Below are positions 16,166 to 40,000 of a stretch of DNA of 40,000 bases, piece after piece (position 1 is the first letter of the stretch; each line of letters begins with the position of its first letter). This stretch comes from Halopenitus persicus (GTDB taxonomy: Archaea; Halobacteriota; Halobacteria; Halobacteriales; Haloferacaceae): assembly GCF_900107205.1 (NCBI RefSeq), contig NZ_FNPC01000014.1, positions 1 through 40,000 on the forward strand. The letters run 5' to 3'. The position numbers were made by a program, and so were the translations under genes. The notes below the pieces were generated by a model that worked only from the letters and a program-made list of their open reading frames with translations, searched no databases and was not told the DNA's origin.

Positions 16166-16211
16166 CGTGTCCACACAAATCGAGTGACCCGTTCCCATCC
16201 ATTGGGGCACT

Positions 16212-20000: not shown

Positions 20001-20373
20001 ACTTGAGGACACCGCGGACCGTGCCCAGAAGATCTCTAGTCGACAGAACCGCTTGAACAACAACCTAGATAGTATCGAGTCCGACGTCAAGAAAGAGGGC
20101 GACGACGACCTGCTCGAACAGTTCCGTGACGCCCGTGAGAACGTGGCTCGCGGCCAGTTCGCTGAAGCCGAACAACAACTCGGGGACATCCAGGACAGAC
20201 TGGAGGGCCCAACACCCGAGGAACGGTTCAGAAATGCCGTCGAGGAACACGACGGGCGGTTATCGAAGGTCGTCGATGCGACCGATTTCAGTTGGGATGA
20301 GACGTTCAAATGGGCGTACCAGCTGTACAATAACGGTGAATTCAACGACATCCACCTGGTGAACGACAAATGA
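17002..20373 (+). CDS. large P-loop ATPase with an NPF N-terminus and a long acidic coiled-coil C-terminal region
   Basis: LNTNPFE; Walker A GDYGTGKSH (17179-17202); Walker B IFIFIDEAED (17512-17526). About 300 aa are E/D/L/Q-rich heptad-like sequence (roughly 19280-20180). 1123 aa. Confidence 0.85.
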   Translation: MSKYDKFDLNTNPFERTIANEETARTYRIVGRDDQEARLEEFVQDALQHPENMSRSLVFGDYGTGKSHHLIQLRDDLKDGIEIDGATHHAIGVYVGNLGLSIRSLYIEIIEEVLDFAPELEDFVEGLKPVEPESSVEETFEVEQLMKNVATNLRKLSQEATTEYDYNSIFIFIDEAEDIVNAEESKVKDFVRSFLHVVNELSAARIHILLGFSQKAKTRITGYDEEGSQPLGNALFQRFAQRQAIQLGNLRKGDVEEMLIDRLDQHRSTNKGKLYPIVEETIGVIKSLTNGHPREILSIYASALQYAAEADLDAVNGDAVFYAIRGFDSLVRDEQILSTTSLSNFEQGLRDFDTDAANDFENLRGRLIGEDARVPQDGFTTDPEELLQPISISSDTDIRVLERINEDGRYFYQLHEEAKDFLFGSTGGEGTLIADLDIHATTAPIKYQSSMSRGFALALREADYATTFPDPVGVEYEDYQLESWLVEYHVGEGYRRPTVALAVYNGPELPKEIAELFIKTIEQKGASFGILLKQGQGKSAELNKYLSELEGLKSDYYRERVLQIDLTEKQREESAYGKLLGLGKSDVEFDDDAFEVDELVESLGVNDRLVEAIQESVLPYPGSIGRRVIEEMERNQQKDFTITGLREQLDLQQYDLRSETMIGYLKQGLVSKDGQNWTYPDVEDDRPPWYHVYAILKDKDPLTRDELQFEVEQRFVLGCNEGEEAEMLQWYLNRLRIAGYVEQEKGPAGEGMKYDVVSVADQVDETVLQARDRLEDARETYEEAQELNITELNEYNNQLDDVETTITDVDGSLNPDSGDLSRLKDALGKAETVRDELQDEIDAGHEQLEGEVENLAIQADELEERLEEIKQEEVHVDDFDTWHEELSTLLEDLRELVEDDEYSLLADRVEEVGERLDEIDEELEEIAGAKQQCVKAYQHAQDLKEEAADAIADISTDNDQQEVLQQELNGFEEVLEAYDKYYSATQYKEALTYLNDHLPELEDTADRAQKISSRQNRLNNNLDSIESDVKKEGDDDLLEQFRDARENVARGQFAEAEQQLGDIQDRLEGPTPEERFRNAVEEHDGRLSKVVDATDFSWDETFKWAYQLYNNGEFNDIHLVNDK

Positions 20374-23105: not shown

Positions 23106-25207
23106 GTGGGGACGAGAAAAAACGGCATCAGCGGAAACTGGGTGACAGAATCAAATCCATCGTTCGGTTCTACGACGATCTCGCAGAGCGAACCAGATAC
23201 GGGCCTGTTCAGCCCTACTGCCACGTTCCAGACCTGTTCGAGGTGGACCCCGAAGCGGAACGCCCCCTCACAGTTCCTGGGACGTTCATCTCCGAGCAGG
23301 TCGGCGGCAACATCCCCGTCACAGCAGACGAGGGGGGGCTGCTCGACTCGGAGCCCCTCGACCTGATGCTCTCGTACTACCTCCCTGGTGGTTACAAACG
23401 GCGATGGGACTTCGAGATGTGGACCGGAGACTTCGCTGCCTCGCAACGCGACGGCTACGTGGACGTCACGTCTGGCTTCGAGTTCCGCCAGGACTACCCT
23501 CTCGAAGAGGTGCTCTCTTTGACGGACTCGGAGGAGTACACACCGTTCGGGTACGAAACGGACGAGGTCGGTCTCTATGTACCCGAGGAGATCTACGTAA
23601 AGCAGCCAGCGTCCCCGCGTTACTTCTTCGACACCGTTCACAAGCACGTACTGAACTACAATCCCGACACCGTTCCAGACGAAGACGTTATCGACCTCGG
23701 AATGAGCGACCCGAGCTCGAACTTTCTCTGGTTCAAACACCTTCACCGACTCGGTGGAGACATCGAAAGATTCGACATCGAGGAGGAGGGCGAACTGTTC
23801 AGTCGGATCGTCTTCTCCGACGAGTCCGTCTTCCTGAAGTGTTACTACGCGACGGTCCTCACTTTGTATCGGCAGGACCAGCGGACATTCTCCGATGTCG
23901 TCCGGTACTTCAATGACCGTAGCGGTCGGGTCGCCTTCGTGACGAGTGAGGAGAAGAGCCAGGTGCTCCTCTTCGACATTCCTCGTGAATGGGTCGAAAA
24001 ATCGGTCAGTAGGCAACTGGACTCGAACGAGTCACTGCGGCGTGACCTCGGGTTCGCACAACTGTATCGGGAGCTCTGGGACGACCTCTTCTTCACCGAC
24101 CGGACGATACAGAACGTCTACGGCGTCGATCCAGTCTTCCGATCCCTTCAGGCTGCGGACTACTGGATTCGGACCTCAGACGAGAGTCCCAATTCTGTGT
24201 TCGAGGCATCGGTCAACGAGATTTGCGGAGTTCTCGACAAGGTAATTCCGGAATCAGGTCCGAGCAGACTTCGGCTGATGGGATACGACAGCGACCAGCG
24301 CGAGGATCTGAAGGATCTTTTCCGGGACAACTCGGAAGAACTACGCGAGGTTCTGGAGAACTGTGCGTCGATAGAAAACCAGCGGACGTTCACCGAGCAG
24401 GTCCTCGTTCACTCCCTGCAGAACGCCGTCGCAGGATGGGCCGTGGCGGCGGGACTTGGCGGAAGCGACTTCGAAACCTGGTACGACGCGAACTACCAGA
24501 GCAAGGACATCGACGTCGTACAGTTAGCGCTCTACGACACGATTCAGGGCGGCGCCGGGACGAGCAAAGAGGTCTTCAAACGGCTCAAGGATGGATCACT
24601 CGACATCTCCGGCCCGCTCTCTAACCAGTGTTCCTGCCACATCTCGCTCGCGGAGGACCTCGTGCTCTCGCTGCTCGCCGAGCGCGACGCGTCCGTTCTC
24701 TACGACATCTACACGCAGGGCGACGGCGAAGACGACGAGATTCAGCGGGATCTCTTCGACCTCGCAGTCGCTACCGCGTCAGATATCGACAGAGCCAAGC
24801 TCGTTGACGAGGAGGAGGTCATCACCGTATTCAATCGTCGGATTGCCTCGCTGTACGAGACGAAAGAACTTGCACGCTTCTACGGCGCGGTCGCCCGGGC
24901 GTACCACCGCATAGCGTCCGAACTGAATCGGACACCGACTGCGATGGACGTTGTCCTCGGTCTCGAAGAAGAGACGTTTATCGATTCCCGGGTGAGAAAC
25001 ACCTACGAACGGTTCGCCAACCGTGGCTCCCAGCGTAGGGACCTGAGCGAACTTGCCGACCGCGTCGAGGAGATCACAAAGCAGTGCATCAGAGCCTGTC
25101 CGGACTGTCTCGAACGACAGGACTCTATGTACGCGTATCGCTACCAGAACCAGATGCTCGACAAACGCCTCTTGCAGGCGTCGCTTTCCGAGGTGATTGA
25201 AGTATGA
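23102..25207 (+). CDS. DUF1998 (MrfA Zn-binding, DrmB-like) domain protein
   Basis: The C-terminal third contains HSLQNAV...LALYDTIQGGAGTS (24530-24559) and Cys pairs C510-x-C512 and CIRACPDCL (25085-25108), followed by NQMLDKRLL. This matches the DUF1998 pattern. The N-terminal ~470 aa are unassigned. Confidence 0.7.
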   Translation: MSGDEKKRHQRKLGDRIKSIVRFYDDLAERTRYGPVQPYCHVPDLFEVDPEAERPLTVPGTFISEQVGGNIPVTADEGGLLDSEPLDLMLSYYLPGGYKRRWDFEMWTGDFAASQRDGYVDVTSGFEFRQDYPLEEVLSLTDSEEYTPFGYETDEVGLYVPEEIYVKQPASPRYFFDTVHKHVLNYNPDTVPDEDVIDLGMSDPSSNFLWFKHLHRLGGDIERFDIEEEGELFSRIVFSDESVFLKCYYATVLTLYRQDQRTFSDVVRYFNDRSGRVAFVTSEEKSQVLLFDIPREWVEKSVSRQLDSNESLRRDLGFAQLYRELWDDLFFTDRTIQNVYGVDPVFRSLQAADYWIRTSDESPNSVFEASVNEICGVLDKVIPESGPSRLRLMGYDSDQREDLKDLFRDNSEELREVLENCASIENQRTFTEQVLVHSLQNAVAGWAVAAGLGGSDFETWYDANYQSKDIDVVQLALYDTIQGGAGTSKEVFKRLKDGSLDISGPLSNQCSCHISLAEDLVLSLLAERDASVLYDIYTQGDGEDDEIQRDLFDLAVATASDIDRAKLVDEEEVITVFNRRIASLYETKELARFYGAVARAYHRIASELNRTPTAMDVVLGLEEETFIDSRVRNTYERFANRGSQRRDLSELADRVEEITKQCIRACPDCLERQDSMYAYRYQNQMLDKRLLQASLSEVIEV

Positions 25208-28200
25208 TTGTCTCGCTGTACGACGTCGTCCACAACGCCGAGAAGTACGCAATAACAGACCTTTCCAAGGAAGAGCAAGCGTTCAAGGATAAGGAACTCA
25301 CCGTCCGATGTGAAGTCACCGGGATTCCATCGACCGGAACTGCAGGGGGTGAGAAGACTCTCTACCCGGTCGACGACCCGACGACTCAGCTCCAAGACGA
25401 AGTACTGCTATCATTCTGGCACGAGGACTCCAACTGGGGCCGGCTTGAGGAGACCGACAACGCGGTTCAGACCTTCGTCGACACGTCGCCGCTCCAGCGT
25501 GGGGAGGAGTTGCTCGTGCGGGCGATTCCTGTCCATCGAGAGGGCAAGTGGTACCTCAACGTGACGTCGCTGTTCGTCCGCAACCCTGACATAACCATTG
25601 GGAAGAGCGAGATGCGGTCGGCCAACGAATGTCCCCGAATCTACGACCTACGATACCGGAAGAACGTTTTCAACCCGAACCGGTACGACATCTCGAAGGG
25701 CGCCGTCAAGGGCAGCATCGCTCACCGGGCACTGGAACGCGCGATAGACGACTCCGAGTTCGCCGCGAACTTCGAGTCGGGATGGACGGACGACGATGTC
25801 GAGGAACTCATGGACGCCGTCGTGGATGAGAGCTTCTCGATGGAGATGACGCTGTGCCGCCTCGCCTGGGTGAGCCCCAACGACATCAAGGAGTTTGCCG
25901 AAAACTCGGTTCTCAACCTTCTCCAGGACGCTGGGTTCACGAAACTCGTTCGGGGAACCGAAACCCTGGAAACTGAACGAACGATCGCCGACTCGTACGG
26001 CTTGAACGGCCGCGTCGACCTGATGATCGACGGTAGTCCGCTCGACCTCAAGACGAACTTCTTCCTCGAAGACGGGATGAAACAGCGGCACAGGTTCCAA
26101 CTTCGCCTGTACTTATTCGGGGTCCTGCTGGAGAACCTGGACCAGGGAATGAATCTCGGCAAGGTGTTGGACGAACTCCCGCCGGGCGTGATTATCTACC
26201 CCAATCTGCAAGATGAGTCGGAACCGGTGTACGAACGGGTAGAACTAGAGCACCACCACATCGAGGAGATCATGCAACTCCGGAACCAGGCGGCGACGCT
26301 CCGGGATTCCTTCGCCGTGCCGACGACGTATGACAGGGACTGTTCTGGCTGCTACTTTAAGGACGAAGACACGATCGGTAGCGGTGCAGGCGCAGGCCAG
26401 AGGCTGCCGTCCGCCTGCAAGTTCCACTGCCAGTCGGAACGCCGGTGGGCCTGCCACGAAACGAACGACGAGGGCGAGGTGAAGACCGAGTGTCCCTTGT
26501 ATCACGAGTGCGACCAGCGCCTGGAGTACCGCAATCCGAGCGTCACGGACCACTATAACCAGCTTAGGTCGGCTCTCCAGGATGAGAAGCGAGCCAGGAA
26601 GGATGCCGGCAAGACGATGGCCCGGATGACTGACGAGGTCCTAGAGAACGCAGGGATGCAGCTTTCCGGGCTTTCCTTCGAGGAGGAACTCTCAACCCGG
26701 CGGATGCTCTATTCCGGCGAGTCGGTTCGCCTGTTCGAACCCGGGACCCCAGTACGAATCGTCCCAGAAGACGAAGATACACACATCGTGGCGACCTACT
26801 GTGGTACCCAGGAAGGGGGTTATGTCTTCGAGTTCGACGGGTCGCCCCCGACTGACTTCAAACGGTTCAATGTCACGTACCGAGCCACGAGAGCGGTCGA
26901 ATCGACGTCGCTCCCTCGCCGATTGCTCTCGGAGCTCGATTACGCACAACGGATCGGAATCGACCCCCGTCTCCGAGAGTCAGGAGAGATCTCCCCAAGT
27001 CCGGAGCGAATTGCTCCTGACGCAGTCGAAAAGATTGCGGACTACCTAGACAACCGGCAGGTATTCGTTAACCTCCCGGCGCGAGTCAGTCGCTCCGAGA
27101 AACTCACCCAACTCGTTCGTGAGGTCACGCAGTCCCCTCTCCAGTCGCTTGACGGAGACTGGGTGCCTGACGACGACCGCCGGGTGCTCGTGCTCGGGGC
27201 TCGGCTCCCCGAGCTAGACTCCGTGGCCGACCATCTTGTCGACGGAGATGATATCATCCGTGTCGACGGATTCGGTGACGCGAAGAACGCATACGGCCCG
27301 ACCAGCAACTCGCACAGGCTCTACGAAGCAATTCGGGACTCCAACGTCATCGTCTCCTCGGCCCAGTACGCGCTGCAGGAAGGTGTCTTCCATTCGATGA
27401 CATCGGGTGATGAATCGGCTCGGCCTCATTCGAGCCGCTTCTTCGATGCAATCGTGATACTTGGTGCTGAGACCCTGACGGAACCCGAGTACGTCTTCCT
27501 CCGTGACCTCGCCGACCGAACTGTCGCCGTCGGAGAAGTCAACCGGGAGAGTCCCGAGATGGTCAGCGAAGAGGCTCGGGAGAAGGGACTCGCTGAGTCC
27601 TACTACGTTAACGCGTACAAGCGCTTCAGCACGATTTCGAGTGAATCTGCCGAGTCGATTTTCATCGAGGGGGAGGCCTCGACGCCAGTCGCCGAGTTCT
27701 TCAAACCGCTGGACATCGAGCTTGATGGGATCGGCGGCTCCGCGTCGTTCCACCACGTCTCGGGAGAGGAGCAACGAGCAGAGGAATATATGACTATTGA
27801 GCGGCGAATTCATACGGTAGGCGAGACCGACGAGCCACGGGATATCCTCCTCAAAGCGCTCGATCGAGGTGACGCTCTTTACGTCGCGTCCCAACTCGAC
27901 GATCTGAACGCACTCGATGCAACCGACCTCAGAGTGGGACAGACCTACACGTTCGGCGAGGCCCGGTTCCGAGTCGAAAACAATGACGTCGCCCCCGACC
28001 GCGATATGGGCCACGTGGTCACCGTCGACATCAACCTCTCCCAGACGCCATACTTCACCCGGCGACTCATCTTGAACCCGCTGGAAGCGCAGGAAGTCGC
28101 TAATCTCACAGCCGAACAGGAGCCTTCGCTCGTCGTCACTCCCTTCGAAGCGCAAGCCGTATCCATCAGCACGGAACTGGAGGACCGAGGGATTGACGTG

Positions 28201-28413
28201 CCGGTGGTCACTCCCGACGCCCTCGAAGGAGACATCGTAGAAGATGTAATCGTGAGCCTCACAGTGGCCAACGACGAAGAAATCGTCCGGCCACCGGTGA
28301 ATAACATCGAGACACTGTACACCTTGCTAACGGCTGGTGAGTCCGTCACTGTCGTTGGGGACGAAGCGACGCTCAAGCGAAATACACTAACCGAACGCCT
28401 CACCGACTTGTAA
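25204..28413 (+). CDS. multidomain protein: N-terminal OB-like region, Cas4/RecB-type PD-(D/E)XK Fe-S nuclease, and a degenerate Upf1/Dna2-like SF1 helicase core
   Basis: Nuclease motifs: ECPRIY, GSIAHRALE, GRVDLMIDGSPLDLKT, QLRLYLFGV, and C380-x2-C383...C405 (about 25606-26433). The helicase C-terminal signature is VVTPFEAQAVSI...VVTPDALEGDIVEDVIVSL...VTVVGDEATL (28120-28410). The Walker A slot reads VLVLGARLPEL (27184-27216) and the Walker B slot FDAIVILGAE (27442-27471). Confidence 0.8.
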   Translation: MIVSLYDVVHNAEKYAITDLSKEEQAFKDKELTVRCEVTGIPSTGTAGGEKTLYPVDDPTTQLQDEVLLSFWHEDSNWGRLEETDNAVQTFVDTSPLQRGEELLVRAIPVHREGKWYLNVTSLFVRNPDITIGKSEMRSANECPRIYDLRYRKNVFNPNRYDISKGAVKGSIAHRALERAIDDSEFAANFESGWTDDDVEELMDAVVDESFSMEMTLCRLAWVSPNDIKEFAENSVLNLLQDAGFTKLVRGTETLETERTIADSYGLNGRVDLMIDGSPLDLKTNFFLEDGMKQRHRFQLRLYLFGVLLENLDQGMNLGKVLDELPPGVIIYPNLQDESEPVYERVELEHHHIEEIMQLRNQAATLRDSFAVPTTYDRDCSGCYFKDEDTIGSGAGAGQRLPSACKFHCQSERRWACHETNDEGEVKTECPLYHECDQRLEYRNPSVTDHYNQLRSALQDEKRARKDAGKTMARMTDEVLENAGMQLSGLSFEEELSTRRMLYSGESVRLFEPGTPVRIVPEDEDTHIVATYCGTQEGGYVFEFDGSPPTDFKRFNVTYRATRAVESTSLPRRLLSELDYAQRIGIDPRLRESGEISPSPERIAPDAVEKIADYLDNRQVFVNLPARVSRSEKLTQLVREVTQSPLQSLDGDWVPDDDRRVLVLGARLPELDSVADHLVDGDDIIRVDGFGDAKNAYGPTSNSHRLYEAIRDSNVIVSSAQYALQEGVFHSMTSGDESARPHSSRFFDAIVILGAETLTEPEYVFLRDLADRTVAVGEVNRESPEMVSEEAREKGLAESYYVNAYKRFSTISSESAESIFIEGEASTPVAEFFKPLDIELDGIGGSASFHHVSGEEQRAEEYMTIERRIHTVGETDEPRDILLKALDRGDALYVASQLDDLNALDATDLRVGQTYTFGEARFRVENNDVAPDRDMGHVVTVDINLSQTPYFTRRLILNPLEAQEVANLTAEQEPSLVVTPFEAQAVSISTELEDRGIDVPVVTPDALEGDIVEDVIVSLTVANDEEIVRPPVNNIETLYTLLTAGESVTVVGDEATLKRNTLTERLTDL

Positions 28414-28807: not shown

Positions 28808-29974
28808 TCAGTTATTGGATGCGTCTTCAGTAAGAATTCCTGCACTCCGAAATGCGGCCATCAACGAGCCGAATTTCTTCACATAGGCTCTGTGGGAGAA
28901 CCGTGTTCTGTCGTTGATTTCGGTCTCATTAGGGAGTCTACCCAACTCCTGAGTCAGCGCGACTAACTCGATGATAAGTTCTCGTTTGTCCCAGTCGAAT
29001 TCCTCCTCATAGGTATTGGAAGTCGGTCGTAATTCGGAGGACTCCAGCGAGTCTTGGGATACTGATTCGGCGTCCGTCTGAGTTGAGGCTTCGTTTTGAT
29101 TACTGGGTTTGGGTTCCACCCACTCCAGGACCACGTCGAGCTGGTCCTCAATCACATCCTGAATAGAGGGATCTTCGTAACGAGCGTATTCCAAGAGGTC
29201 GAAAAGGATCAGCGAGAGGCTCTGGTAGAAACCCATCCCTCCAACTTCTTTGGTATGCTCGCCCGCAAATGCATCCACTTTCTCACGAGGCGTGGTATCA
29301 TCGATACCTTTCCGTCGCGCATAGGCGTTTTCTGCTTCAGCGAGACGGCGCCGGACGCTCTCGTACTTCTCAGTGTCTGAAACAAGAGGGAGAGGTCCGA
29401 GGGCTGTCTCTACGTACCGGCGCTCGAATTCGGTGATGAAGTCGAAGGTGTCGTCCGGGTCGAGATCCCAGTAGTTCGCAATGACCCACGCGTAGTCTTC
29501 ATCAATCTCTGTGACTTTATTGGCAGGAATCCACTCGGTGACGTCAAGTCGATCGACGAGTAGATCGTTCCAGCGCAAAAGCGAGCAACTCAGCGTCGGA
29601 TCCATCACCCGAGCAAAGTACGGAATCGATTCGAGAGAGTAGACAAGAGCGGGTCCGTCGATGTCTTTGGCTCGCAGGACCGCGCTGTACTCGTCAAGCA
29701 GTTTCTCGAACCGTCGGTGTCGGTGTTTGTTGATGGCGTTCCGAACGTACTTTTCACGTACACCGATTTCGCCGGCGAGTTCGGAGACCGTATATCGACT
29801 GTTTTGGAGTCGGTCGAAGATGGCGGTAGTGAACGGTTTATCGAGAACCCTAATCGGCGCTCCGTACTCAGGGATTTCACGCACAGGATTCTGGTCGAGG
29901 ATCACCCTCCGCTCATCGACCAGTTTCCGTTGTTCTTCCTGAGAGAGTGCGTAGAATTCCTCGCTCGATACCAT
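28808..29974 (-). CDS. HTH protein with a C-terminal homing-endonuclease-associated repeat
   Basis: HTH: YTVSELAGEIGVREKYVRNAINK. The C-terminal ELIIELVALTQELGRLPNETEINDRTRFSHRAYVKKFGSLMAAFRSAGI matches the repeat commonly found with haloarchaeal HNH proteins. Confidence 0.7.
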   Translation of the reverse strand: MVSSEEFYALSQEEQRKLVDERRVILDQNPVREIPEYGAPIRVLDKPFTTAIFDRLQNSRYTVSELAGEIGVREKYVRNAINKHRHRRFEKLLDEYSAVLRAKDIDGPALVYSLESIPYFARVMDPTLSCSLLRWNDLLVDRLDVTEWIPANKVTEIDEDYAWVIANYWDLDPDDTFDFITEFERRYVETALGPLPLVSDTEKYESVRRRLAEAENAYARRKGIDDTTPREKVDAFAGEHTKEVGGMGFYQSLSLILFDLLEYARYEDPSIQDVIEDQLDVVLEWVEPKPSNQNEASTQTDAESVSQDSLESSELRPTSNTYEEEFDWDKRELIIELVALTQELGRLPNETEINDRTRFSHRAYVKKFGSLMAAFRSAGILTEDASNN

Positions 29975-30702: not shown

Positions 30703-31416
30703 TCACGAGTCTTCGAACTGCTTGAAGTCGAGTTGGGCCGTGGGTTCCGAAGTGCAGAACTCCTCAATATCAGAGATAGTCTCGATTGTATTCCCGGCAG
30801 ACAGGTTGCTGGCGAAGTTCTTCAGATACGTTCCTTTAAGCGCGACGACAATCGATCCGTTCTCCTTCGCCTCGTCAGTTCTTGCCGGAATCGAGATGAG
30901 ATTCTTCCGCCCGTTGGCCACCTCTGCCTGGTTGAAAAGCACACCCCAGGTGCCGGATGGGATTTCAGACATTATCCCCTGGACGTCTATGCTGAGATAG
31001 TACTTGCTCCCCAGTGCGAAGAACACGATGTCGTACGGCTTCTCCACGGCAAAGAGTTCCCGAACCGACTGCGGAATCCCGAGTTTCGTCCTCCGATTTA
31101 GAAGCTCTTCCTTCAACATCTCGTTGAAGGTGACTTCGTACGGGGGAAGTTCCTCGGTCTCTTCGACGAGACCGAACCCTGCGCTGATGAAGTAGCGGTC
31201 CACCTCATACCCCGTTTCCCGAAGAGCGTCGACGGCTTCGGAGATATATTGCTGCTGTCGGCCCTTGTAGAGATCACGTGCCCGCAATCTTGCCACACCC
31301 TCTTGTTCAAACAACTCCTCTCTCGGCTGCGCATCGATCTCGTCGGCATCGAACACCGGACTCTCATCGGGGTACTCCTTCGCTCCCGAGCACTGGTCGA
31401 TGATGAGTATCTTCAT
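30703..31416 (-). CDS. hypothetical protein with a DUF6884-like / YaaA(DUF328)-like motif pattern
   Basis: MKILIIDQCSGAKE...ARDLYKGRQQQYI...DRYFISAGFGLVEETEELPPYEVTF. This gives an N-terminal beta-strand plus CSxxK, LYxG, and SAxxGL...PYxxT. Its start overlaps the stop of the 734-aa TGT-like gene (forward TCAT at 31413-31416). Confidence 0.65.
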   Translation of the reverse strand: MKILIIDQCSGAKEYPDESPVFDADEIDAQPREELFEQEGVARLRARDLYKGRQQQYISEAVDALRETGYEVDRYFISAGFGLVEETEELPPYEVTFNEMLKEELLNRRTKLGIPQSVRELFAVEKPYDIVFFALGSKYYLSIDVQGIMSEIPSGTWGVLFNQAEVANGRKNLISIPARTDEAKENGSIVVALKGTYLKNFASNLSAGNTIETISDIEEFCTSEPTAQLDFKQFEDS

Positions 31417-33617
31417 TGGCTGAACTCCGCGAGCCCGGATTGGACGAGCCGTGACGGCAGATATTCAGCCTCGTACCCCAGGCGGTCGAGAACCGCCGTT
31501 CGTAGCTCATTCGCGTCGGAATACTCGTGAACCGTACAATCTTGGGTCTCGACCGCGTGTCGAACTTCCTCGAACAGAGGGCGATCCGTCGAATATATGA
31601 AGAGGTCTTGATAGCGGACGCAATGGGCTCCGATTTGTTGACCGAGTTTGGACGGGGCGAGTGAAACCGTCGACGGCGGTTGCTCCCACCATTCGTGAAC
31701 GCCGTTTGCGGTTACGACCCCGATCTCCGCGACCGGCAGGTCATGAACCGCCTTCCAGAGTTCGGGTTCACTGTTCCGAAGATACGACTCGATCGTTTCA
31801 ACACCCGATAAACTGGCTGAGGCCTCGGTGGCAACGAGGATCTTCGGCAGTTCCTCCTCAAACTCGTCGTAGAACTTCCGGGTGTTGTGGAATCCGCGGC
31901 GACGGTTCCGGTTGTTTCCCCGGAAGATGGCGACTTCGATACCGAGTTCGGAGCAGATTGGACAGCCACACTCCCGCCACGGTTCGTTGCGGAGGGTCTT
32001 CTCGTAGGCTTGGAGGTGGTCCTCGTCACCCATCCACTCCGCATACGATTTGACGAGCGCCCAGACCTGTTTGAACGTCCCGACATCGGCGGTCGTCCGT
32101 TCGCGCCGTGCAATCTCCGCTTGCATCGACTCGAACTCTTCGAATACGCCGCTCGCTGTCTTCAACAATCTCGCGTACTCTTCGAAAAGGAGTGGCTCCT
32201 CCGGGTCGTCTTCGCGGAGGAGTTTGTGGACGCGACTCCGGAGCATATCGCTGAAACTCGCCTTCAACTCCCCTGCCAGATCGAAGTCCTCTCGGAGTGA
32301 CTGCTCAATGTCACGGAGCCGAGAAGCATCGAACCGGTCGTCGAACCGGTTGTCATAGAGGTAGCTCTCGAAGCTATCGAGGGCAATCTCGGCCGACGAG
32401 AGCCACTCGTCGAGCGCATCTGCGATCGACCGATTCTCGTCGAACGCCCGGAGGCCGTGAAGCACCTCCTGTCCGCGGAGGGCCTTCTCGACAGCGTCTT
32501 CGAGGTCATCACCGTTCGACGGGTACCGGACGCGGATGGCGTCATAGCGGCGTTCACTATCGAGGTGGTAGTTCTCGCCGCCCGTCCAGGCAGCCCGCAG
32601 CATACTCGCGCTGTCAAAACTCGTCATCCCGGTCCGACCGATCGTCTCGAAGGCGTCCGTCTTTGCGAACCCGAAGACGTGCGTGTCGACTCGGGTGTCG
32701 AACCCGCGTTCGTAGTCCTTGATAACAGTCCCGAGCTCGGTGGTGGTCTTTCGGACGTCCTCGACGTTGCTGCCCGCAACCCCACCGATACCGAGGTAGT
32801 CGTAGCCCATCCCGAGGACCTTCCGTGCCGCATTGGCGTACGATCCGGGATCCCACCCCTGGATTGCGACCATAAGACGAAATGAGTAGCCGTTTTCTTC
32901 GTAGAGGTCGCGCATCTCGCGGGCGTTCTTCAGCGTCAACTGGTAGCGAAAGTCGGTGTCGTCTTCCCGATAGACCGCCCGTGGGTCGTCCCGGAGGTCG
33001 GCGAGGACACGATCGGCCGATCCCTCGAAAATCGATAAGTCGAACGGGTCCGGATCGCCCGCCTCGTAGATCGACGGTTCGGATTCGGCCACATAGTCGG
33101 GCCAGGTGTCAGGCCACTCGTCGATCATAAGGTCGAGGTCCTCCGTTAGGTCCTCGGGTAGATCGTCCGTGGAGAATCCCTCGGGCATCGCACGCTTGTC
33201 GAGGTAGAGTCGCTCCTGATGACCAGTGCCTAGCACAAGGTGGTCGATAGTCACGCCGACCGTGACGCCAAGTTGCTCGTAGAATTCCAACATCCCGTCG
33301 TTGTCGTAGGGCGGAAACGGGAGTTGTTTGTAGCCCCAAGCCCCGCAGTCGCTGATCGTAGGCAGCCAGTCGGGGATGTTCAGACCGGACGCTTCGTGGT
33401 GGACTCCGTGGTCGATGAGACGCTCGAACTTCGTGCGGCTGTCCTCAACCTGCTCGCGGGAGATGAGGACGCCGTCGATGGGTGTGCTCTCGTAATCGAA
33501 GATATCCCAGATGTACTGCTGGACGCGTTCGCTGGTATGCGGCGAAGAGTGCTCGTCGTGCTCAAAGTCATAGTGAGCGTCGACGCGGTCTTCCCATTCC
33601 GGTACGTAGAACCTCAC
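31413..33617 (-). CDS. large divergent TGT-superfamily protein (734 aa) with long insertions and a C-terminal extension
   Basis: FYVPEW; SDCGAWGY (33330-33353, the DSGGFQ position); YLGIGGVAG; HVFGFAKT; MTSFDSASMLR (around 32610-32618). The zinc site is CGCPIC-x21-H (31887-31970, ...NRRRGFHN). About 210 aa of helical insert separate FDS from the zinc site, and residues 590-734 are unassigned. Confidence 0.8.
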   Translation of the reverse strand: MRFYVPEWEDRVDAHYDFEHDEHSSPHTSERVQQYIWDIFDYESTPIDGVLISREQVEDSRTKFERLIDHGVHHEASGLNIPDWLPTISDCGAWGYKQLPFPPYDNDGMLEFYEQLGVTVGVTIDHLVLGTGHQERLYLDKRAMPEGFSTDDLPEDLTEDLDLMIDEWPDTWPDYVAESEPSIYEAGDPDPFDLSIFEGSADRVLADLRDDPRAVYREDDTDFRYQLTLKNAREMRDLYEENGYSFRLMVAIQGWDPGSYANAARKVLGMGYDYLGIGGVAGSNVEDVRKTTTELGTVIKDYERGFDTRVDTHVFGFAKTDAFETIGRTGMTSFDSASMLRAAWTGGENYHLDSERRYDAIRVRYPSNGDDLEDAVEKALRGQEVLHGLRAFDENRSIADALDEWLSSAEIALDSFESYLYDNRFDDRFDASRLRDIEQSLREDFDLAGELKASFSDMLRSRVHKLLREDDPEEPLLFEEYARLLKTASGVFEEFESMQAEIARRERTTADVGTFKQVWALVKSYAEWMGDEDHLQAYEKTLRNEPWRECGCPICSELGIEVAIFRGNNRNRRRGFHNTRKFYDEFEEELPKILVATEASASLSGVETIESYLRNSEPELWKAVHDLPVAEIGVVTANGVHEWWEQPPSTVSLAPSKLGQQIGAHCVRYQDLFIYSTDRPLFEEVRHAVETQDCTVHEYSDANELRTAVLDRLGYEAEYLPSRLVQSGLAEFSQ

Positions 33618-34459: not shown

Positions 34460-34744
34460 CTACTCAGAAAGACTCCAGAGCAGTGAACTTCCGACCTTAC
34501 GGCTCTCAATCTTAGTCTGATCTTCCAAGGACTTGAGTCGCGTGTATGCGGTCCGCTGAGTACAACCAATCTCCTCGGCGATCTCTGATGTACCTGCCAT
34601 TCCTTCGAGTTGCTGAATGGCTTCTATAAACTCAGAATCGGTATAAGTCGTAGTATACCTTCCCGATTCTTCCTCACGATCTTTTCCAGGCACGATGTCT
34701 AATTCGTATACTTCGCCTATGTAAGTGATGGGTTGGAAACCCAT
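34460..34744 (-). CDS. small winged-helix DNA-binding protein
   Basis: EFIEAIQQLEGMAGTSEIAEEIGCTQRTAYTRLKSLEDQTKIESRKVGSSLLWSL is an HTH plus wing. Confidence 0.7.
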   Translation of the reverse strand: MGFQPITYIGEVYELDIVPGKDREEESGRYTTTYTDSEFIEAIQQLEGMAGTSEIAEEIGCTQRTAYTRLKSLEDQTKIESRKVGSSLLWSLSE

Positions 34745-34889: not shown

Positions 34890-35390
34890 ATGGAAAACTC
34901 AAATCCCCCGAATCAAGAGGTTGTCGGTGACCAGTTAATTGAAGATATATCAAAAATAAAATATATTGCGCTCGGGGAAGGGCCGGCGGCGTGTCAGGTC
35001 TGCGACCGCGAGCTCCGGGAAGGCGACGAGCTGACCGCGTATGCCTTCCGGGCGGCTGGCAACCCCATTTTTGAGATCGGATACGTGATGTGCGGGGCGG
35101 ACGAGCACGCACACCCGACGGAGTTTATGCGCGGCGTCCACGAGCTCGTGGTGACTGGTCGGGTTGGGCTGTGTTCTGATGTGGCGGTGCAGTCGTCGTG
35201 GTTGGTTCTGCTTGCGCCGTCGGTGGTGGTGGTGAGTGTGGCGTCGTCGGACTCGGCTTGCGTGGTGGGTGATGACACGACGCGCGATGCTGAGGCCCGG
35301 AGCACTACCGTCACTGAGCATCGGGGTGGTCCGAGGTCGTTGCTGTCGGTTGTCTGTGAGGATACTCGGGCTGATGGGGGTGGTTGGTGA
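34890..35390 (+). CDS. hypothetical protein, first ORF of the RAMP operon
   Basis: The only in-frame start is the ATG at 34890. Its stop overlaps the next ATG (TGATG at 35388-35392). It contains CQVCD...MCGADEH. The first ~28 codons are AT-rich and the rest is GC-rich. Confidence 0.5.
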   Translation: MENSNPPNQEVVGDQLIEDISKIKYIALGEGPAACQVCDRELREGDELTAYAFRAAGNPIFEIGYVMCGADEHAHPTEFMRGVHELVVTGRVGLCSDVAVQSSWLVLLAPSVVVVSVASSDSACVVGDDTTRDAEARSTTVTEHRGGPRSLLSVVCEDTRADGGGW

Positions 35391-36307
35391 TGGTGTTGGA
35401 GTTTGAGACGTCGCATTTGGATCGTGAGGTGTCGCTCCCGGACGATGTCGAGGAGCTCACGCTTCCGGATCTGTACGTGGGACTCGAGATTCCGCTGCTC
35501 GCACCGGGCGATGGGATCGTGACGGATCGCCATCACGCCTCGGCGGATCGGTATGAGGCGGATGATCCGCAGAATTTGATTGGTGGGATGGTGTCGCCGT
35601 TCCCATTGTCGGGGTGGTTGCGGCACGGTTGTGAGCGTGTGGTGCAGGTGGCGGGCGGGTCGGCGTGTCATCCGGGTGAGGCGAATGCGGACTATATGCT
35701 TGAGGATGTGTATGAGCGTGACCTCGACGCCGGGTACCACGAGAAAGGGTCGTGCGTCGACGACGATGCGGGCTGTGTCGTCTATGACTTGTTCGGCGGG
35801 TTTAATGATCGGGCGGGGCGGTTGGTGCGTCGGCCGATCCGGTTTTCTCCGATTCGCCGGCAAGTCGACGTCCTGCAGGGCGAAGCGGAAGCGCATTACC
35901 GCCAACTGAATACGCAGGTGCGTTCGCGGAACAGTGAGGATGACGGGCAGCCGTTGCGGATGGCGTCCCGAGACGTTGTCGGGAACCTGGTGGGGACGTG
36001 GAAGTTGTCGCTGCGGGAGTTGAAACCGGAGTACGTCGGGCTGCTGGTTGAGGCGGTTGATTATTTGGATGCGCATAGTGATGAGTTTGAGCTTCAGCTT
36101 GGTGGGGCGCGGAATTTCGGGGCGGGGATGGTGGATGCGCGCGTCATCAACCCGTTGTACACGGACGCTGAGATCAAGCGGGTGTATAATCGCGCGCAGG
36201 ACGCCACGTCGGGGATGGCGTGGAAGGATGACCTGTGGCGGGAGTCGGTGCGCCAGGAGTTCGTGACGCCGCTGCAAGAGCGTGTGAACAGTATGGGGGA
36301 GCTGTGA
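35390..36307 (+). CDS. RAMP-superfamily (Cas7-like) protein, not linked to a CRISPR array
   Basis: LEIPLLAPGDG (beta1 plus glycine), PFPLSGWLRHGCERVV (the S-x-x-G-x-x-R position), GCVVYDLFGG (the C..c.lFG motif), and LQLGGARNFGAGMVD (the C-terminal G-rich loop). Confidence 0.7.
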   Translation: MVLEFETSHLDREVSLPDDVEELTLPDLYVGLEIPLLAPGDGIVTDRHHASADRYEADDPQNLIGGMVSPFPLSGWLRHGCERVVQVAGGSACHPGEANADYMLEDVYERDLDAGYHEKGSCVDDDAGCVVYDLFGGFNDRAGRLVRRPIRFSPIRRQVDVLQGEAEAHYRQLNTQVRSRNSEDDGQPLRMASRDVVGNLVGTWKLSLRELKPEYVGLLVEAVDYLDAHSDEFELQLGGARNFGAGMVDARVINPLYTDAEIKRVYNRAQDATSGMAWKDDLWRESVRQEFVTPLQERVNSMGEL

Positions 36308-37128
36308 TGGCGCAAGCGAGTGATACGGTTAGCGTGGATCTGCGGGTGGCGTATCGGCACGATGTTCACAAACTGCGTGGTCGTCAGCACGGGTCGGGGT
36401 GTGACGAGCTGTTCGATGTGCCGGTTAATGAATCAGTCCCGATGCAGGCGGATCGGGATGCGGCGTTGTTGAGCCGGCCGGACGGCGAACCCGAGCAGAC
36501 GGTGGCGAATCATGCGTCGCCGGCGCGGCTGTCGCTGCTCACGGGCTCGGTACTCGAAACGGGGGCGGTCCCCGTACAGGATACTTCGATCACGCCGCTG
36601 GTTGATGGGTCGCCGGAAGAGTTGCACGCGGCGTGGTTGACGAGTGAGACTGCGTCGCTGGTGAATGAGTCGGTGTTTCTGCCGTATTCGTCGTTGAAGT
36701 ATCACGTGTTGCTGGTGGCGGGACTGCTTGATGCGTACCGGGCGGGCCACGTGTTTGATGACCTGTTCCTGGTTGTAGAACCGACTACAGATGTACCGCC
36801 ACGAGATGCGGATCGAGTAGTGAGACAGCAGGCGGCACTTGACGCAGATACGGTGATTCCACACCGAACCATCCTGTGGACGGAGGCGATGACGATGCGG
36901 TTGACGGCGTCACCGGACGGGTCGGCGGCGTGGCTTGGTCCGGCGCCGGCTGAGTCGTTTGCGGATGTGTGGAGTCGCGTGTCTGGGTCGCCGGTGGATC
37001 GTGACACGGTATGGTGGCGACACGTCGACGCACAGCTCCGTCGCATCCGGTCGTGGTCGACGGCGCTACAGTACATTGAGGATGCTGTCGCGGGTGAGAC
37101 GCGCGGCACGGTGGGGGTGGATGCGTGA
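36307..37128 (+). CDS. hypothetical protein of the RAMP operon
   Basis: The ATG at 36307 overlaps the upstream TGA by 1 nt. 273 aa, acidic, no recognisable motif. LPYSSLKYHVLLVAGLLDAY is only faintly HD-like. Confidence 0.6.
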   Translation: MAQASDTVSVDLRVAYRHDVHKLRGRQHGSGCDELFDVPVNESVPMQADRDAALLSRPDGEPEQTVANHASPARLSLLTGSVLETGAVPVQDTSITPLVDGSPEELHAAWLTSETASLVNESVFLPYSSLKYHVLLVAGLLDAYRAGHVFDDLFLVVEPTTDVPPRDADRVVRQQAALDADTVIPHRTILWTEAMTMRLTASPDGSAAWLGPAPAESFADVWSRVSGSPVDRDTVWWRHVDAQLRRIRSWSTALQYIEDAVAGETRGTVGVDA

Positions 37129-37438
37129 CCCGTCGTCACGGTCGTGACGGCTGGGCTGCTGACTCCGGTCATGCGATATGGTCGTACGGTGAGTCGGCGG
37201 GTCGGACTGCGTGTCCGGTCGCGTTCCCGGCTCTCCAGGGTCGAGGGTCGTTGGACCGCCCGGCAGTACACGCCTCACCAGCGGTTCGCCGTGCGTTGCG
37301 GGTGCTTGGTGGGGCTGTGTCTCCTGCTGGTGGTGAGTGGGGGTTGAGTCGAGTGGGGGCTCGCTGTGGTGATGCAGTTACCCGGGATGGGTCGGTGTGT
37401 TATGATCTCGATGTGAACCGAAGGGGGTGTGGTGTGGT

Positions 37439-38383
37439 ATGACGCGGATCCAGCAGGTCGTGTTCGAGTTGACAGCGCCGTACGCGGGGCGGCCGTATCA
37501 CGTGTCGGGTCACGCGTTGTTTCAAGCGATCGCGGCGGACGTCGACGACCGGGCGCGACGCGAGTTACAGGTGAGTCACGGGGTGTTCACGCCGTCTGAG
37601 TACGGGTCGTACCCGGATGAGCATTCACAGGATGGGTATGCGGGGAAGCTCGGCGGGTCGCTCCCGCCGGTCGAGTCGTACGAGGATCTGTTCCTGTTTC
37701 GGGACGCAGCCCAGCGATGGTTGCAGGCGTCCCGGCCGCGTGAGGCGCAGAATACGATGGATGTCCAGTCGCACGGCGGGCGGCTCGCGGTCGCGCCGGA
37801 GTCGTTCTTCGGGGTGCCGGCACACCAGCGGAATTCGAAGCGCCGCGTGACATGGTACATCCACGCGTATCTTCACAGTGAGCGCGAGGGCGTGCTCCCG
37901 CTTGATGAGAGCGTGCTTGATGGGATCCGGGTGGGCGGCGCGCGGAACTACGGGTTTGGGGAGGTATCGCTTGTCGACTCACAGGTCGTCGATCTCGACG
38001 CGGTGTCGTTCGATGGGCTGCGGGGGCACGACCAGTACTCCATCGAGCTGGTGACGCCGTACGTCTTGCAGAGTGAGGCCCCGGACGCGGACACCCAGTC
38101 GGTGCCGTGGTGGTGGGATACGTCGGTTACGGGCATGGGAAGTGATGCGCCGACGCGAGACCGGCGGTTGCGTCGCCGCGAGGAGCGACTCGCTGGGGAG
38201 TCGGTGTACGACTTGGCGACGATCGATCACGGGCAACTTGTCGGCTACGCCGGAAACGACCCGATACAGACGGCGAAAAACGGCGTGTTGCGAATCGGAA
38301 CACACGCACGATTCGGGTTCGGTGAGCTGCGGGTGCGGCCGGCGGGTCGTGATCGCGTGCCGGAGCGTGAGGGGGTGGTGTGA
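37439..38383 (+). CDS. RAMP-superfamily protein with two G-rich loops (Cas5/Cas6-like two-RRM architecture)
   Basis: YHVSGHALFQAI near the N-terminus. The two glycine-rich loops are IRVGGARNYGFGEVSL and LRIGTHARFGFGELRV. Confidence 0.7.
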   Translation: MTRIQQVVFELTAPYAGRPYHVSGHALFQAIAADVDDRARRELQVSHGVFTPSEYGSYPDEHSQDGYAGKLGGSLPPVESYEDLFLFRDAAQRWLQASRPREAQNTMDVQSHGGRLAVAPESFFGVPAHQRNSKRRVTWYIHAYLHSEREGVLPLDESVLDGIRVGGARNYGFGEVSLVDSQVVDLDAVSFDGLRGHDQYSIELVTPYVLQSEAPDADTQSVPWWWDTSVTGMGSDAPTRDRRLRRREERLAGESVYDLATIDHGQLVGYAGNDPIQTAKNGVLRIGTHARFGFGELRVRPAGRDRVPEREGVV

Positions 38384-39042
38384 TGCTTGAGCAGGTGGCG
38401 TTCGATATTGAGACGACTGGATTTGACATCAATGATGAGGTGACGGTCGTCGGGTTTGCGATGCCGATGGGTGTCCGGGTGTTCGTTCAGACCGCTGGGC
38501 GGGCCGCCGGCGATGTCGAGGCCAGCGTGTCGGCGCGGCTGTCGGACACACTTGTGAATGTGTCGACACACCCTGATGAGTCCGCGCTGTTGGCGGCTGT
38601 CGCGGCGTTCATCGGTGACCGGATACAGGACGCGGAGTCGCTGCTCGTTGCGTTTAACGGCGAGGTGTGGAGTGGCGGGTTCGATCTGCCGTTCCTGCGG
38701 AGTCGGTACGCGGCGCATGGGATGGCGTGGCCGTTCGATGTGGCGTATGCGGACGTGTTGCCGGTGATTTCGGATCGGTTCAACACGACGGTTGACGGTG
38801 AGGAACAGCGCGGGTTGGCGGCTGTGTACAGGCTGCTCGGCGACGGGTCGCATAGTGACCTTGATCCGTTTGAGGACAGTGCCGCGGCGGTGACCGCTTT
38901 CGAAGACGGGCGGTTCGTGGAGCTCGTGTTGCATAACGTGGCGGATGTGTTGCGGACGCGGGCGCTCGGCCGGGTTGCTGAGCGGTACTGTAGCAAGGCA
39001 GAGTTCAACGTGAAATCGTTGACGCCGACGAGGTCGAGTTGA
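38383..39042 (+). CDS. DEDDh 3'-5' exonuclease (DnaQ/RNase T-like)
   Basis: Exo I AFDIETTG; Exo II LVAFNGEVWSGGFDLPFL; Exo III LHNVADVLRT (H-x4-D). The ATG overlaps the upstream TGA (38381-38385). Confidence 0.8.
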   Translation: MLEQVAFDIETTGFDINDEVTVVGFAMPMGVRVFVQTAGRAAGDVEASVSARLSDTLVNVSTHPDESALLAAVAAFIGDRIQDAESLLVAFNGEVWSGGFDLPFLRSRYAAHGMAWPFDVAYADVLPVISDRFNTTVDGEEQRGLAAVYRLLGDGSHSDLDPFEDSAAAVTAFEDGRFVELVLHNVADVLRTRALGRVAERYCSKAEFNVKSLTPTRSS

Positions 39043-39238
39043 GATGCGGGTGCCGGGAGTCGTAGCCGCGTGGCGGGCTGGGCAAGTGCGTGACTGGGTG
39101 GTGCCGCCGGATTGACGCGCGGTGTCGACAGGCGGCTCCGTTGGTGCTGTCGGTGCGGAGTGAAGCGATACACCAAGACTCACGGCAGCGCAGTGCAGTA
39201 TCGGTCGCAACTGAACACGACGTACACTGAGAGACAAT

Positions 39239-40000
39239 ATGGCAGAAGCTGATACACGACCCCGAGCGGATGAATCAGGCAGTCCAACTACAGACGGCAA
39301 GGACGCCGGGACGACGAGCCCTCGTGAGTGTCACGAGACGGTTGACCCGGCGACGCGTGACGAGGTCCTGACGGAGTACCAGCATCGGTGCCAGGCGTGC
39401 GGGCGACGCGGGCCTGCACAAGGTGGGCTGGCGACGCTGCACGTCCATCACATCGAGCGGGACCCCGACGGGATAAACGAGCACGACCTGGAGAATTTAA
39501 CGTTGCTGTGCCGGTCGTGCCATAGTTGGTTCCACCAGCAGAGCACCCCGGATGAGTTGCCAGTGGATATCACTGAGGAAGATGAGAGTGTGCTGCTCCC
39601 GCAGGACATCGAGATCCTGCGGTACTTGGCTGATGAGGGGCCGGCGCGGACCGGTGAGATTTCGAACGGGTTGACGGCTGAGTTGTCCGTCACCACGGTT
39701 CGGGAGCGGCTGGCGTTGCTGATGGGGCTTGACAATATGGTCGACTCTCGGGACCAGCAGATCGTCGATCAGGACGCTGACACCGGCGAGTGGGGCCTGA
39801 CCGAGCAGATTGAGCATTCAGCGCGTGGGCATATTCCGTCGGATCCGCAAGCGTTGATTCAGCGCGTTGAGGACGAGCAAGTTAGGCAGGCACTGGAGCG
39901 TGGGTGCGACCGGGAGACCGTGATGGCTGTGCTCGATGTCTCCAGAAGGACGACGTTTCACAAGGAAAAACGCGCGATGGCGTACGATTTCCCGTTGAAT
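39239..40000 (+). CDS. HNH endonuclease fused to a winged-helix domain, 3'-partial
   Basis: This ORF is missing from the supplied track because it runs off the window. My translation from the ATG at 39239 gives ...YQHRCQACGRRGP...LHVHHIERDP...NLTLLCRSCHSWFH (an HNH motif). It continues with EILRYLADEGPARTGEISNGL..TTVRERLALL (a wHTH). The frame is open to position 40000. Confidence 0.8.
   Translation, partial: MAEADTRPRADESGSPTTDGKDAGTTSPRECHETVDPATRDEVLTEYQHRCQACGRRGPAQGGLATLHVHHIERDPDGINEHDLENLTLLCRSCHSWFHQQSTPDELPVDITEEDESVLLPQDIEILRYLADEGPARTGEISNGLTAELSVTTVRERLALLMGLDNMVDSRDQQIVDQDADTGEWGLTEQIEHSARGHIPSDPQALIQRVEDEQVRQALERGCDRETVMAVLDVSRRTTFHKEKRAMAYDFPLN

Follow-up and report, generated by a model that had tools for sequence, protein, structure and literature searches.

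HRAMP, the haloarchaeal RAMP system, was reportedly first described by Makarova et al. in 2019, from genomes. Published accounts portray it as a combination of extremely diverged Cas5 and Cas7 homologs with extra nucleases and uncharacterized proteins, array-less and type III-derived, mostly linked to HNH and PD-(D/E)xK nucleases, and expected to be a defense system that works unlike CRISPR by an unknown mechanism (PMC8730458, PMC12669027). No experimental work on HRAMP was found in the literature searched. Here, an operon from Halopenitus persicus was analyzed that lies on the forward strand at positions 34890-40000 of a 40,000-nucleotide (nt) stretch of DNA (contig NZ_FNPC01000014.1), referred to below as the window and used for all coordinates given without a locus name. 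The operon encodes a Cas7-like protein (p2), a conserved uncharacterized protein (p3) and a Cas5-like protein (p4), preceded by a smaller protein (p1) and followed by a DEDD exonuclease (p5) and an HNH nuclease (p6), the gene for the last of which is cut by the window end. Judged by its gene content and its relatives, the locus is very probably a complete-looking HRAMP locus of a DEDD/HNH-carrying subfamily.

The locus has the features of the published description: a host among the Halobacteria, a Cas7-like and a Cas5-like protein, a conserved uncharacterized core protein (here p3), nucleases (here HNH), and no array, adaptation genes, Cas10 or Cas3. Its likeness is somewhat closer to type III, and nothing at the locus conflicts with membership. 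It adds nothing categorically new, its kind having already been described. The descriptions themselves (PMC8730458, PMC12669027) make no mention of two subfamilies or a G-skew, of a translated G-rich insert with a repeated 20-nt motif, or of the element preceding the HNH gene (E2) and the weak Cas10-like signal of p3.

With type III-A and III-B (Csm/Cmr) systems the locus shares a Csm3-like Cas7, a Cmr3/Csm4-like Cas5, G-rich loops and a possible remnant of the large subunit. Unlike those systems, the operon lacks a Cas10 recognizable by hidden Markov models (HMMs), namely the large subunit with HD and/or palm domain and GGDD that defines type III, as well as Cas11, Cas6 and an array; in place of CARF or other cyclic oligoadenylate (cOA)-dependent effectors, it carries DEDD and HNH nucleases. 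Type IV and Asgard RAMP (ARAMP) systems resemble it as reduced derivatives of type III in which Cas7 and Cas5 are accompanied by a "large subunit" that is small and looks non-enzymatic, and ARAMP is also array-less and nuclease-linked. However, type IV loci usually have arrays, a Cas6-like Csf5 and DinG or CysH, and ARAMP loci usually a Cas1 homolog, none of which is present here. CreTA modules, which Li et al. reportedly found in 2021 in intergenic regions of haloarchaeal cas operons, and the degenerate mini-CRISPR (psi-repeat) RNAs of haloarchaeal type I-B loci offer a further possible parallel, in that a putatively repeat-derived sequence and a fixed downstream sequence stand in the intergenic region of a cas-like operon. 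The locus differs from CreTA in having neither a flanking psi-repeat pair around a psi-spacer nor Cascade, and the likeness extends over 10-11 nt; no CreTA toxin was identified, although no search aimed at toxins was made.

Core proteins p2 and p4

The protein p2 (305 amino acids [aa]; 35390-36307) carries the motifs PLSGWLRHGCER, CVVYDLFGGF and LGGARNFGAG, the last of which holds the G-rich loop GGARNFGAG. The protein itself matches the Pfam RAMPs family with E=0.017, which is under the curated cut-off. Among 32 relatives, 18 match the same family (best 3.7e-5) and 12 match the PADLOC profile for Csm3 (best 7.5e-5), the nearest named group; one relative bears the NCBI name "RAMP superfamily CRISPR-associated protein." Residues C93, H94, C122 and C129 are invariant in both subfamilies of related loci (see below) and probably form a zinc site inserted in a Cas7-like fold.

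The protein p4 (314 aa; 37439-38383) has two G-rich loops, GGARNYGFGE and THARFGFGE, and is assigned to the Cmr3/Csm4 group of Cas5-like RAMPs. Its match to the PADLOC Cmr3 profile (1.3e-4) is restricted to a G-rich loop of ~30 aa; all 32 relatives searched match Cmr3 as well (best 1.1e-6), and one of them also gives a faint match to the type IV Cas7 (Csf2). A broader p4 profile run against PDB sequences returned weak, sub-threshold matches to Csm4 (E 0.87). The loops of p2 and p4, GGARN(F/Y)G, align with each other (hhalign E 1.7e-4). On these profile and motif comparisons, p2 is classed as a putative, highly diverged Cas7 homolog and p4 as a putative, highly diverged Cas5 homolog.

Related loci and the absence of a CRISPR array

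Each core protein has ~450-560 homologs, every named one haloarchaeal, and the best homologs of p2, p3 and p4 (94-100% identity) belong to Halorubrum and Halopenitus. Scanning one genome per species yielded 79 related loci of 20 kb each (L001-L079), spanning many genera; p2, p3 and p4 occur in that order in 69 of them, and most of the others are cut by a contig end. Two subfamilies are apparent. Subfamily A (L001-L049 and the window) has the arrangement p1-p2-p3-(insert)-p4-p5-p6, with the DEDD or HNH gene at times missing or replaced. Subfamily B (L050-L079) consists of p2-p3-p4 alone, joined by 4-nt overlaps and set among highly variable neighbors, with a p4 that is ~47% identical.

No CRISPR array or tandem repeat was detected in the 40-kb window by Tandem Repeats Finder, a repeat finder or a k-mer array scan. 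A Pfam scan of 27 open reading frames (ORFs) of the window gave no signal for cas1, cas2, cas3, cas6 or cas10, and Cas6 gave none among the operon proteins with Pfam, NCBIfam and PADLOC. A CRISPR array lies within 10 kb in only one of the 79 related loci, that of Halarchaeum sp. P4 (L065), where 14 repeats of GTTACAGACGAACCCTAGTCGGGTTGAAGC occupy positions 11921-12793, 1 kb 3′ of a subfamily-B trio. In the six loci closest to the window, the genes 3′ of the HNH gene encode a PD-(D/E)xK nuclease, a UvrD helicase and exonuclease VII, and no cas genes occur there. No tRNA gene that might mark an integration site is present in the window.

p3, a candidate large-subunit remnant

The gene between the two RAMP-like genes encodes p3 (273 aa; 36307-37128), the protein of the core that is identical (100%) to a Halopenitus persicus database protein and carries the precomputed Pfam tag DUF8168 in the protein database. 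It gave no match to Pfam, PADLOC or NCBIfam HMMs, and its sequence has no GGDD. An exhaustive profile search of 1.8 billion representatives recovered only 143 relatives, all of them small, and none connected p3 to larger proteins. The AlphaFold2 (AF2) model is of moderate quality (predicted local distance difference test [pLDDT] score 68, predicted template modeling [pTM] score 0.73) and comprises a helical N-terminal half and a small alpha/beta domain. Foldseek returned nothing significant against the PDB (best E 1.5). Among its 25 weak matches, all with E >= 1.5, 14 are type III Csm/Cmr effector-complex or Csm1 entries, and the others include palm-domain enzymes; the Csm/Cmr chains recognized there are, we assume, the Cas10 subunit. 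Invariant residues of the family are R17, H18, D19, H21, K22, H28, D49, H69, H107, H133 and D241, and the N-terminal R-H-D-x-H-K that they form is, in our estimation, reminiscent of the N-terminal HD motif of Cas10. These model comparisons make p3 a candidate for a degenerate large subunit, a minimal Cas10/HD remnant. No HMM supports the resemblance, which is a lead rather than a finding.

The p3-p4 insert and its repeated motif

The p3 and p4 genes overlap or lie <=10 nt apart in 25 of 27 subfamily-B loci, and 9 loci of subfamily A are alike in this. A G-rich insert of 40-600 nt separates the two genes in 38 of 47 subfamily-A loci; that of the window is 310 nt long (37129-37438) and is spanned by a 105-codon open frame (37125-37442) with a 4-nt overlap with each neighbor. 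The GC content at the three codon positions of this frame is 0.74/0.66/0.55, compared with ~0.70/0.45/0.75 in the flanking genes, and the inserts in general show the same departure (~0.66/0.68/0.59 versus 0.70/0.45/0.75 in neighbor genes). The frame is 46-50% identical in amino acids, over part of its length, to that of the closest loci, versus 82-95% for the flanking proteins. Despite this non-coding composition, the frame that ends at the start-stop overlap of p4 (ATGA or GTGA) is stop-free in 29 of 31 distinct inserts, compared with 1.4 expected from shuffled sequences, suggesting selection for translation through the spacer. From its composition and open frame, the insert is probably a spacer that is translated through, keeping p4 translationally coupled, and encodes no conserved protein. 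The possibility that the 105-codon frame is a conserved small protein, such as one like Cas11, was rejected on account of its poor conservation and non-coding codon-position GC, and also because the DNA motif shared among inserts sits in three frames.

That motif, GRCACTGGAAACRGGGTGTGTG, is 20 nt long and occurs in one to five direct copies in the p3-p4 insert of 23 loci within L007-L049 (e.g., L029 3427-3640, L030 9632-9949, and L013 9822-9920). L029 comes from Halorubrum californiense (contig_75) and L030 from Halorussus marinus. It is near-invariant across genera in which the flanking proteins are ~55-60% identical. Copies are mostly 33-99 nt apart, and the sequences between them are often duplicated and thus non-unique. 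An nhmmer profile of the motif placed 66 of 80 hits in p3-p4 inserts, always in sense orientation; outside the inserts, four hits alone reached significance, all in L028, just 5′ of p4. An exact scan of a metagenome collection returned 56 stretches, 31 of which come from HRAMP loci and carry the motif in the p3-p4 interval. The other stretches hold single matches in numbers near the chance expectation, and one two-copy match outside HRAMP (L095), inside duplicated ABC-transporter genes, was attributed to chance. Viral contigs contain no copy of the motif, and neither the motif nor the inserts match an Rfam family. The motif is read in all three frames (as RTLETGCV, GTGNGVC and HWKQGVS), and therefore the constraint acts on the nucleic acid. 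A hairpin within it was rejected (RNAalifold, 0 pairs), a structured noncoding RNA in the window insert was unsupported (fold z -0.96, no match in Rfam), and a role of the inserts as antiviral spacers was dismissed, the inserts of the window and of L030 having no match in the phage collection.

The 70 nt 5′ of p4 were compared across all loci; in subfamily A, a diverged copy of the motif always lies 5-10 nt before the p4 start and includes the Shine-Dalgarno-like GGGGGTG. This pre-p4 element reads CTCGATGTGAACCGAAGGGGGTGTGGTGTGGT in the window (37407-37438). The window and its closest Halorubrum relatives have this terminal copy only, and their insert sequence differs.

The E2 element before the HNH gene

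A spacer of 196 nt (39043-39238) separates p5 from the HNH gene. In an alignment of p5-p6 spacers, the element GCGGATTGAAGCGATAC(A/T)CCA is present in ~30 of 32, across genera. This element, E2, has the family consensus GCGGATTGAAGCGATACACCA, with ~16 near-invariant positions (TTGAAGCGATA..CCA); the window copy (39154-39174) reads GCGGAGTGAAGCGATACACCA, one T-to-G change away. E2 is single, whereas the copies of the 20-nt motif are tandem. Of 39 forward matches in 1.56 Mb of related loci, 34 are located 5′ of p6 at a distance of 31-120 nt, for the most part 65-113 nt. The element is kept where p5 is missing, and no match was seen 3′ of p5 in these loci where p6 is missing.

The 5′ part of E2, CGGATTGAAGC, agrees at 10 of 11 nt with CGGGTTGAAGC, which forms the 3′ end of the type I-B repeat of L065. 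The match is limited to the last ~11 nt of the repeat, and Rfam finds nothing. In haloarchaeal I-B systems, the 3′ end of the repeat becomes the 8-nt 5′ handle of the CRISPR RNA (crRNA), which is bound by Cas5. The pre-p4 element of Halorubrum loci and E2 have T(C/T)GAAGCGA in common. An occurrence of TTGAAGC within p2 was rejected as a nucleotide element, since it is due to the codons of ELKPE, with mixed TTG/CTG usage.

Directly 3′ of p5 lies a micro-ORF of 23 codons (39044-39115), encoding MRVPGVVAAWRAGQVRDWVVPPD, the 3′ part of which contains a 25-nt sequence, block 1 (39089-39113), conserved in related loci. L011 and L014 share it in full (100% identity over 25 nt), and identical runs of 23, 22 and 18 nt occur in L038, L009 and L021, respectively; the C-terminal (R)DWVVPPD of the micro-ORF is kept in the same five loci. 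RNAalifold predicted 22 pairs between block 1 and E2, six with compensatory changes, and 88% of cells were paired, versus 29-49% when the sequences were slid, for a set of eight sequences that includes the window and from which the structure itself was derived. The fold of the window's own sequence was not significant. Block 1 may thus pair with E2, although the case from these alignments is thin.

Other operon genes and their arrangement

The operon begins with p1 (166 aa; 34890-35390), which is also the first gene of the subfamily-A operon, with homologs directly 5′ of p2 in 42 loci. Its N-terminal ~140 aa contain CxxC...C..H.H and its tail is not conserved; it has no match in Pfam, NCBIfam or PADLOC, and shows weak local similarity to C2H2 zinc fingers. 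The protein p5 (219 aa; 38383-39042), a predicted DEDD-type 3′-5′ exonuclease of RNase H-like fold, has the motif DIET...FNG..FD...HNVAD and matches Pfam RNase_H_2 (4.5e-5), the NCBIfam DEDD exonuclease (1.4e-3) and the PADLOC CRISPR-associated DEDDh profile (2.2e-4). In most subfamily-A loci it comes after p4; tblastn detected it in 42 of the first 49 loci. By clustering, a DEDD gene was found in 26 related loci and an HNH gene in 34. The protein p6 (39239 to beyond 40000) combines CxxC...HVHHI...CRSCH, with a zinc ribbon of the form CxxC...CxxC, and a central helix-turn-helix (HTH); the Pfam match to HNH is strong (6.9e-10) and that to HTH_20 is weak (0.036). The window holds 254 of its ~354 residues, full-length relatives having a median of 354 aa.

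The p1/p2, p2/p3 and p4/p5 junctions are 1-nt overlaps of the form TGATG, and the 105-codon frame overlaps p3 and p4 by 4 nt at GTGA and ATGA. The TGATG and ATGA overlaps had been noticed in a first-pass annotation of this DNA made from the sequence alone, as had the LFGG, GGARNFGAG, GGARNYGFGE and THARFGFGE motifs, and both were found where described. Its reading of two proteins as RAMPs agrees with the profile matches of p2 (RAMPs, Csm3) and p4 (Cmr3), and its DEDDh exonuclease with those of p5. Its list of genes was right as to the two RAMPs, an unknown protein, a DEDDh exonuclease and an HNH protein, but the order is Cas7-like, unknown, Cas5-like, and p1, the 310-nt insert and the 196-nt spacer were not listed; for its HNH protein with a winged HTH, the nuclease part is well matched and the HTH part weakly.

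The operon has a GC content of 0.61-0.65, and its sense strand is G-rich with T>A (GC skew +0.17 to +0.26), unlike the remaining window. In every genus, the p2-p4 genes of subfamily A have a G-rich sense strand, with a median GC skew of +0.2 and a third codon position with 0.47-0.57 G versus 0.19-0.28 C; there is no such skew in subfamily B or in the flanks.

Upstream of p1, on the opposite strand, a divergent gene (34460-34744) encodes an HTH protein of 94 aa (Pfam HTH_11, 3.5e-4), a possible regulator. In 10 related loci, a similar protein of ~96 aa is likewise encoded upstream and in the opposite orientation; the tie of the HTH gene to the operon is only moderate.

Genomic neighborhood

A Dpd-like 7-deazaguanine DNA-modification/restriction island (9250-28413) lies upstream of the operon. 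It comprises QueC, a radical-SAM QueE-like protein, a PTPS/QueD-like protein, a Vut_1 (YhhQ-type) transporter and a TGT/DpdA-like protein, followed by a BrxC/D-like ATPase, a 1123-aa ATPase, a DEAD helicase, an MZB-domain protein and a 1069-aa PD-(D/E)xK/Dna2-like protein. With this island and its ATPases, helicases and nucleases upstream, the HRAMP operon therefore sits in a defense island. Elsewhere, HRAMP neighbors include a SNF2 helicase, a type IIG methylase-like protein and a UvrD plus PD-(D/E)xK pair.

Two reverse-strand features occupy the interval between the Dpd-like island and the operon. The first (28808-29974) encodes a protein of 388 aa whose C-terminus carries a "homing endonuclease associated repeat" (HNH_repeat, 8e-10). 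The second (30703-33617) comprises a protein of 734 aa, which has a TGT-like CxCxxC zinc motif and no Pfam match, and an adjoining DUF6884 protein. A TGT-like protein and DUF6884 are apparently fused (~670 aa) just 5′ of HRAMP in L001 (3218-5236), L002 (3365-5386) and L037 (3376-5367), in a cluster of 6, and the TGT-like/DUF6884 protein may be a recurrent HRAMP neighbor.

Discussion

As a whole, these results are, by a slight balance of probability, best explained by an RNA-binding complex of the HRAMP family in a defense-island setting. In such a complex, the Cas7-like p2 would form a filament or backbone, with the Cas5-like p4 as its cap and p3 as an additional part, and would bind RNA. The p2-p3-p4 complex would serve as a defense sensor and, by recruitment or licensing, turn the HNH nuclease, possibly together with the DEDD exonuclease, on foreign nucleic acid. 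Its RNA partner would not be array-derived, and the preferred guess is a fixed, operon-encoded RNA marked by the handle-like elements before p4 and p6. Host exonucleases trim the crRNAs of type III systems; the DEDD exonuclease could similarly trim the bound RNA, or else degrade the target. Taken by its parts, the locus probably is a defense system, and the use of a non-CRISPR RNA is a tentative proposal that stands at somewhat below even chances. A more specific version is doubtful: it would have the DEDD/HNH subfamily carry degenerate, repeat-derived elements (a "AUUGAAGC" handle-like element before the HNH gene and one to five tandem "CUGGAAAC-GGGGUGUGUG" units in the translated spacer before p4). 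The fixed RNAs arising from them would be ligands of the Cas5/Cas7-like complex and would serve as a hard-wired, self-encoded guide or in a CreA-like circuit of regulation or addiction that controls the nucleases, with p3 as a minimized Cas10. The first-pass annotation had proposed that the module uses a non-CRISPR RNA guide or acts in RNA processing or defense; the conserved repeat-like elements are compatible with that idea, itself speculation. Its tentative suggestion of HRAMP, and of a derived type III/IV-like module, fits the gene content, the haloarchaeal-only relatives and the published description, and the repeat scans and the domain scan of 27 ORFs bore out its statement that CRISPR repeats, cas1, cas2, cas3 and cas10 are absent from the window.

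Several observations weigh against this interpretation. The HRAMP identity was set by the descriptions in two later papers, PMC8730458 and PMC12669027; Pfam, NCBIfam and PADLOC hold no HRAMP profiles. The window p2 stays under the Pfam cut-off and the Cmr3 match of p4 is confined to the G-rich loop; the AF2 model of p4, built from a 32-sequence alignment, was unusable (pLDDT 37), and profiles of p2, p3 and p4, including broader ones with subfamily B, found nothing significant among PDB sequences. As for the RNA elements, nhmmer did not detect the canonical 20-nt motif in the window, so the motif is not essential to all HRAMP loci, and no significant RNA fold was predicted for the window insert (z -0.96). 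Subfamily B has neither the insert nor E2; with these elements missing there and the motif missing from the window, any role they play is not universal. Finally, E2 could simply serve as a promoter or operator, and the pre-p4 element as a ribosome-binding region.

This last point leads to a protein-only sensor-effector that is RNA-independent, or binds RNA non-specifically, and in which the conserved elements serve ordinary gene expression. On this view, the HNH gene would have E2 as its core promoter or operator, to which the HTH of p6 or the upstream HTH protein might bind, and the pre-p4 element would be a ribosome-binding region duplicated by slippage. Such an arrangement would suit an element that travels only with p6, mostly 65-113 nt 5′ of its start, a sensible position for a promoter or 5′ untranslated region, and a motif whose 3′ half, GGGGTG, is Shine-Dalgarno-like, whose last copy lies 5-10 nt before p4, which has no predicted secondary structure, and which is missing from the window and subfamily B. 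Reviews also suggest that RNA guidance may have been abandoned in the most derived variants. On the other hand, the conservation of the motif and of E2 exceeds the levels usual for promoters or ribosome-binding sites, tandem copies within a translated frame would be odd for a promoter, and the 10/11-nt match of E2 to the repeat is unlikely to arise by chance (a rough estimate of 1e-3 to 1e-4). To our knowledge, moreover, RAMPs bind RNA in all characterized systems. RNA-independent working is rather unlikely, at about one chance in four.

Some type III and type IV loci without an array of their own borrow crRNAs, and HRAMP might similarly use, in trans, mature crRNAs from other arrays, typically I-B crRNAs processed by Cas6b, and so act as an RNA-guided interference module with HNH replacing Cas10/Cas3. 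E2 and the 3′ end of the I-B repeat do have CGG(A/G)TTGAAGC in common, so that p4 may still recognize a handle, and the subfamily-B locus L065 has its 14-repeat array 1 kb downstream. Yet an array is missing within 10 kb of 78 of the 79 loci, neither cas6 nor adaptation genes are linked, and the literature calls HRAMP array-less and expects a non-CRISPR mechanism (PMC8730458, PMC12669027). Borrowing is improbable. Slightly less probable again is a CreTA-like circuit of self-regulation or addiction, in which a repeat-derived RNA would guide the RAMP complex to repress a toxic part, such as the HNH nuclease, and loss or inhibition of the complex would bring cell death or arrest. Within the operon, p4 and the HNH gene are each preceded by a repeat-end-like element with conserved downstream sequence, and reviews stress repurposed repeat variants outside arrays; however, E2 has no second flanking repeat, its downstream sequence has no convincing complementarity (7 bp with the 20-nt motif, by inspection), and the elements are absent from subfamily B. 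An ordinary cas operon, with its array and adaptation genes just outside the window, is what the first-pass annotation had named as the outcome that would overturn its reading. The window does end inside p6, but the genes 3′ of HNH in the six closest loci are unrelated ones, 78 of the 79 loci are array-free within 10 kb, and cas1, cas2, cas3, cas6 and cas10 gave no signal in the 27 ORFs scanned. The Halopenitus persicus protein identical to p3 is listed on a contig of 42,475 bp; if that is the source contig, little DNA would remain past the window end. This explanation has next to no credibility.

HRAMP is among the most derived of CRISPR offshoots. The comparison of loci made here provides testable handles, in the form of two near-invariant elements at fixed places in the operon, one of them resembling the end of a CRISPR repeat, a p3-p4 spacer that is kept open for translation, a possible Cas10 remnant and two subfamilies. 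If the elements only direct transcription and ribosome binding, it would become more likely that HRAMP reuses RAMP proteins independently of RNA, which would also be informative. If instead they mark the RNA partner, HRAMP would show an adaptive, array-based system turning into a hard-wired, innate one, with a compact effector made of Cas7, Cas5 and HNH.

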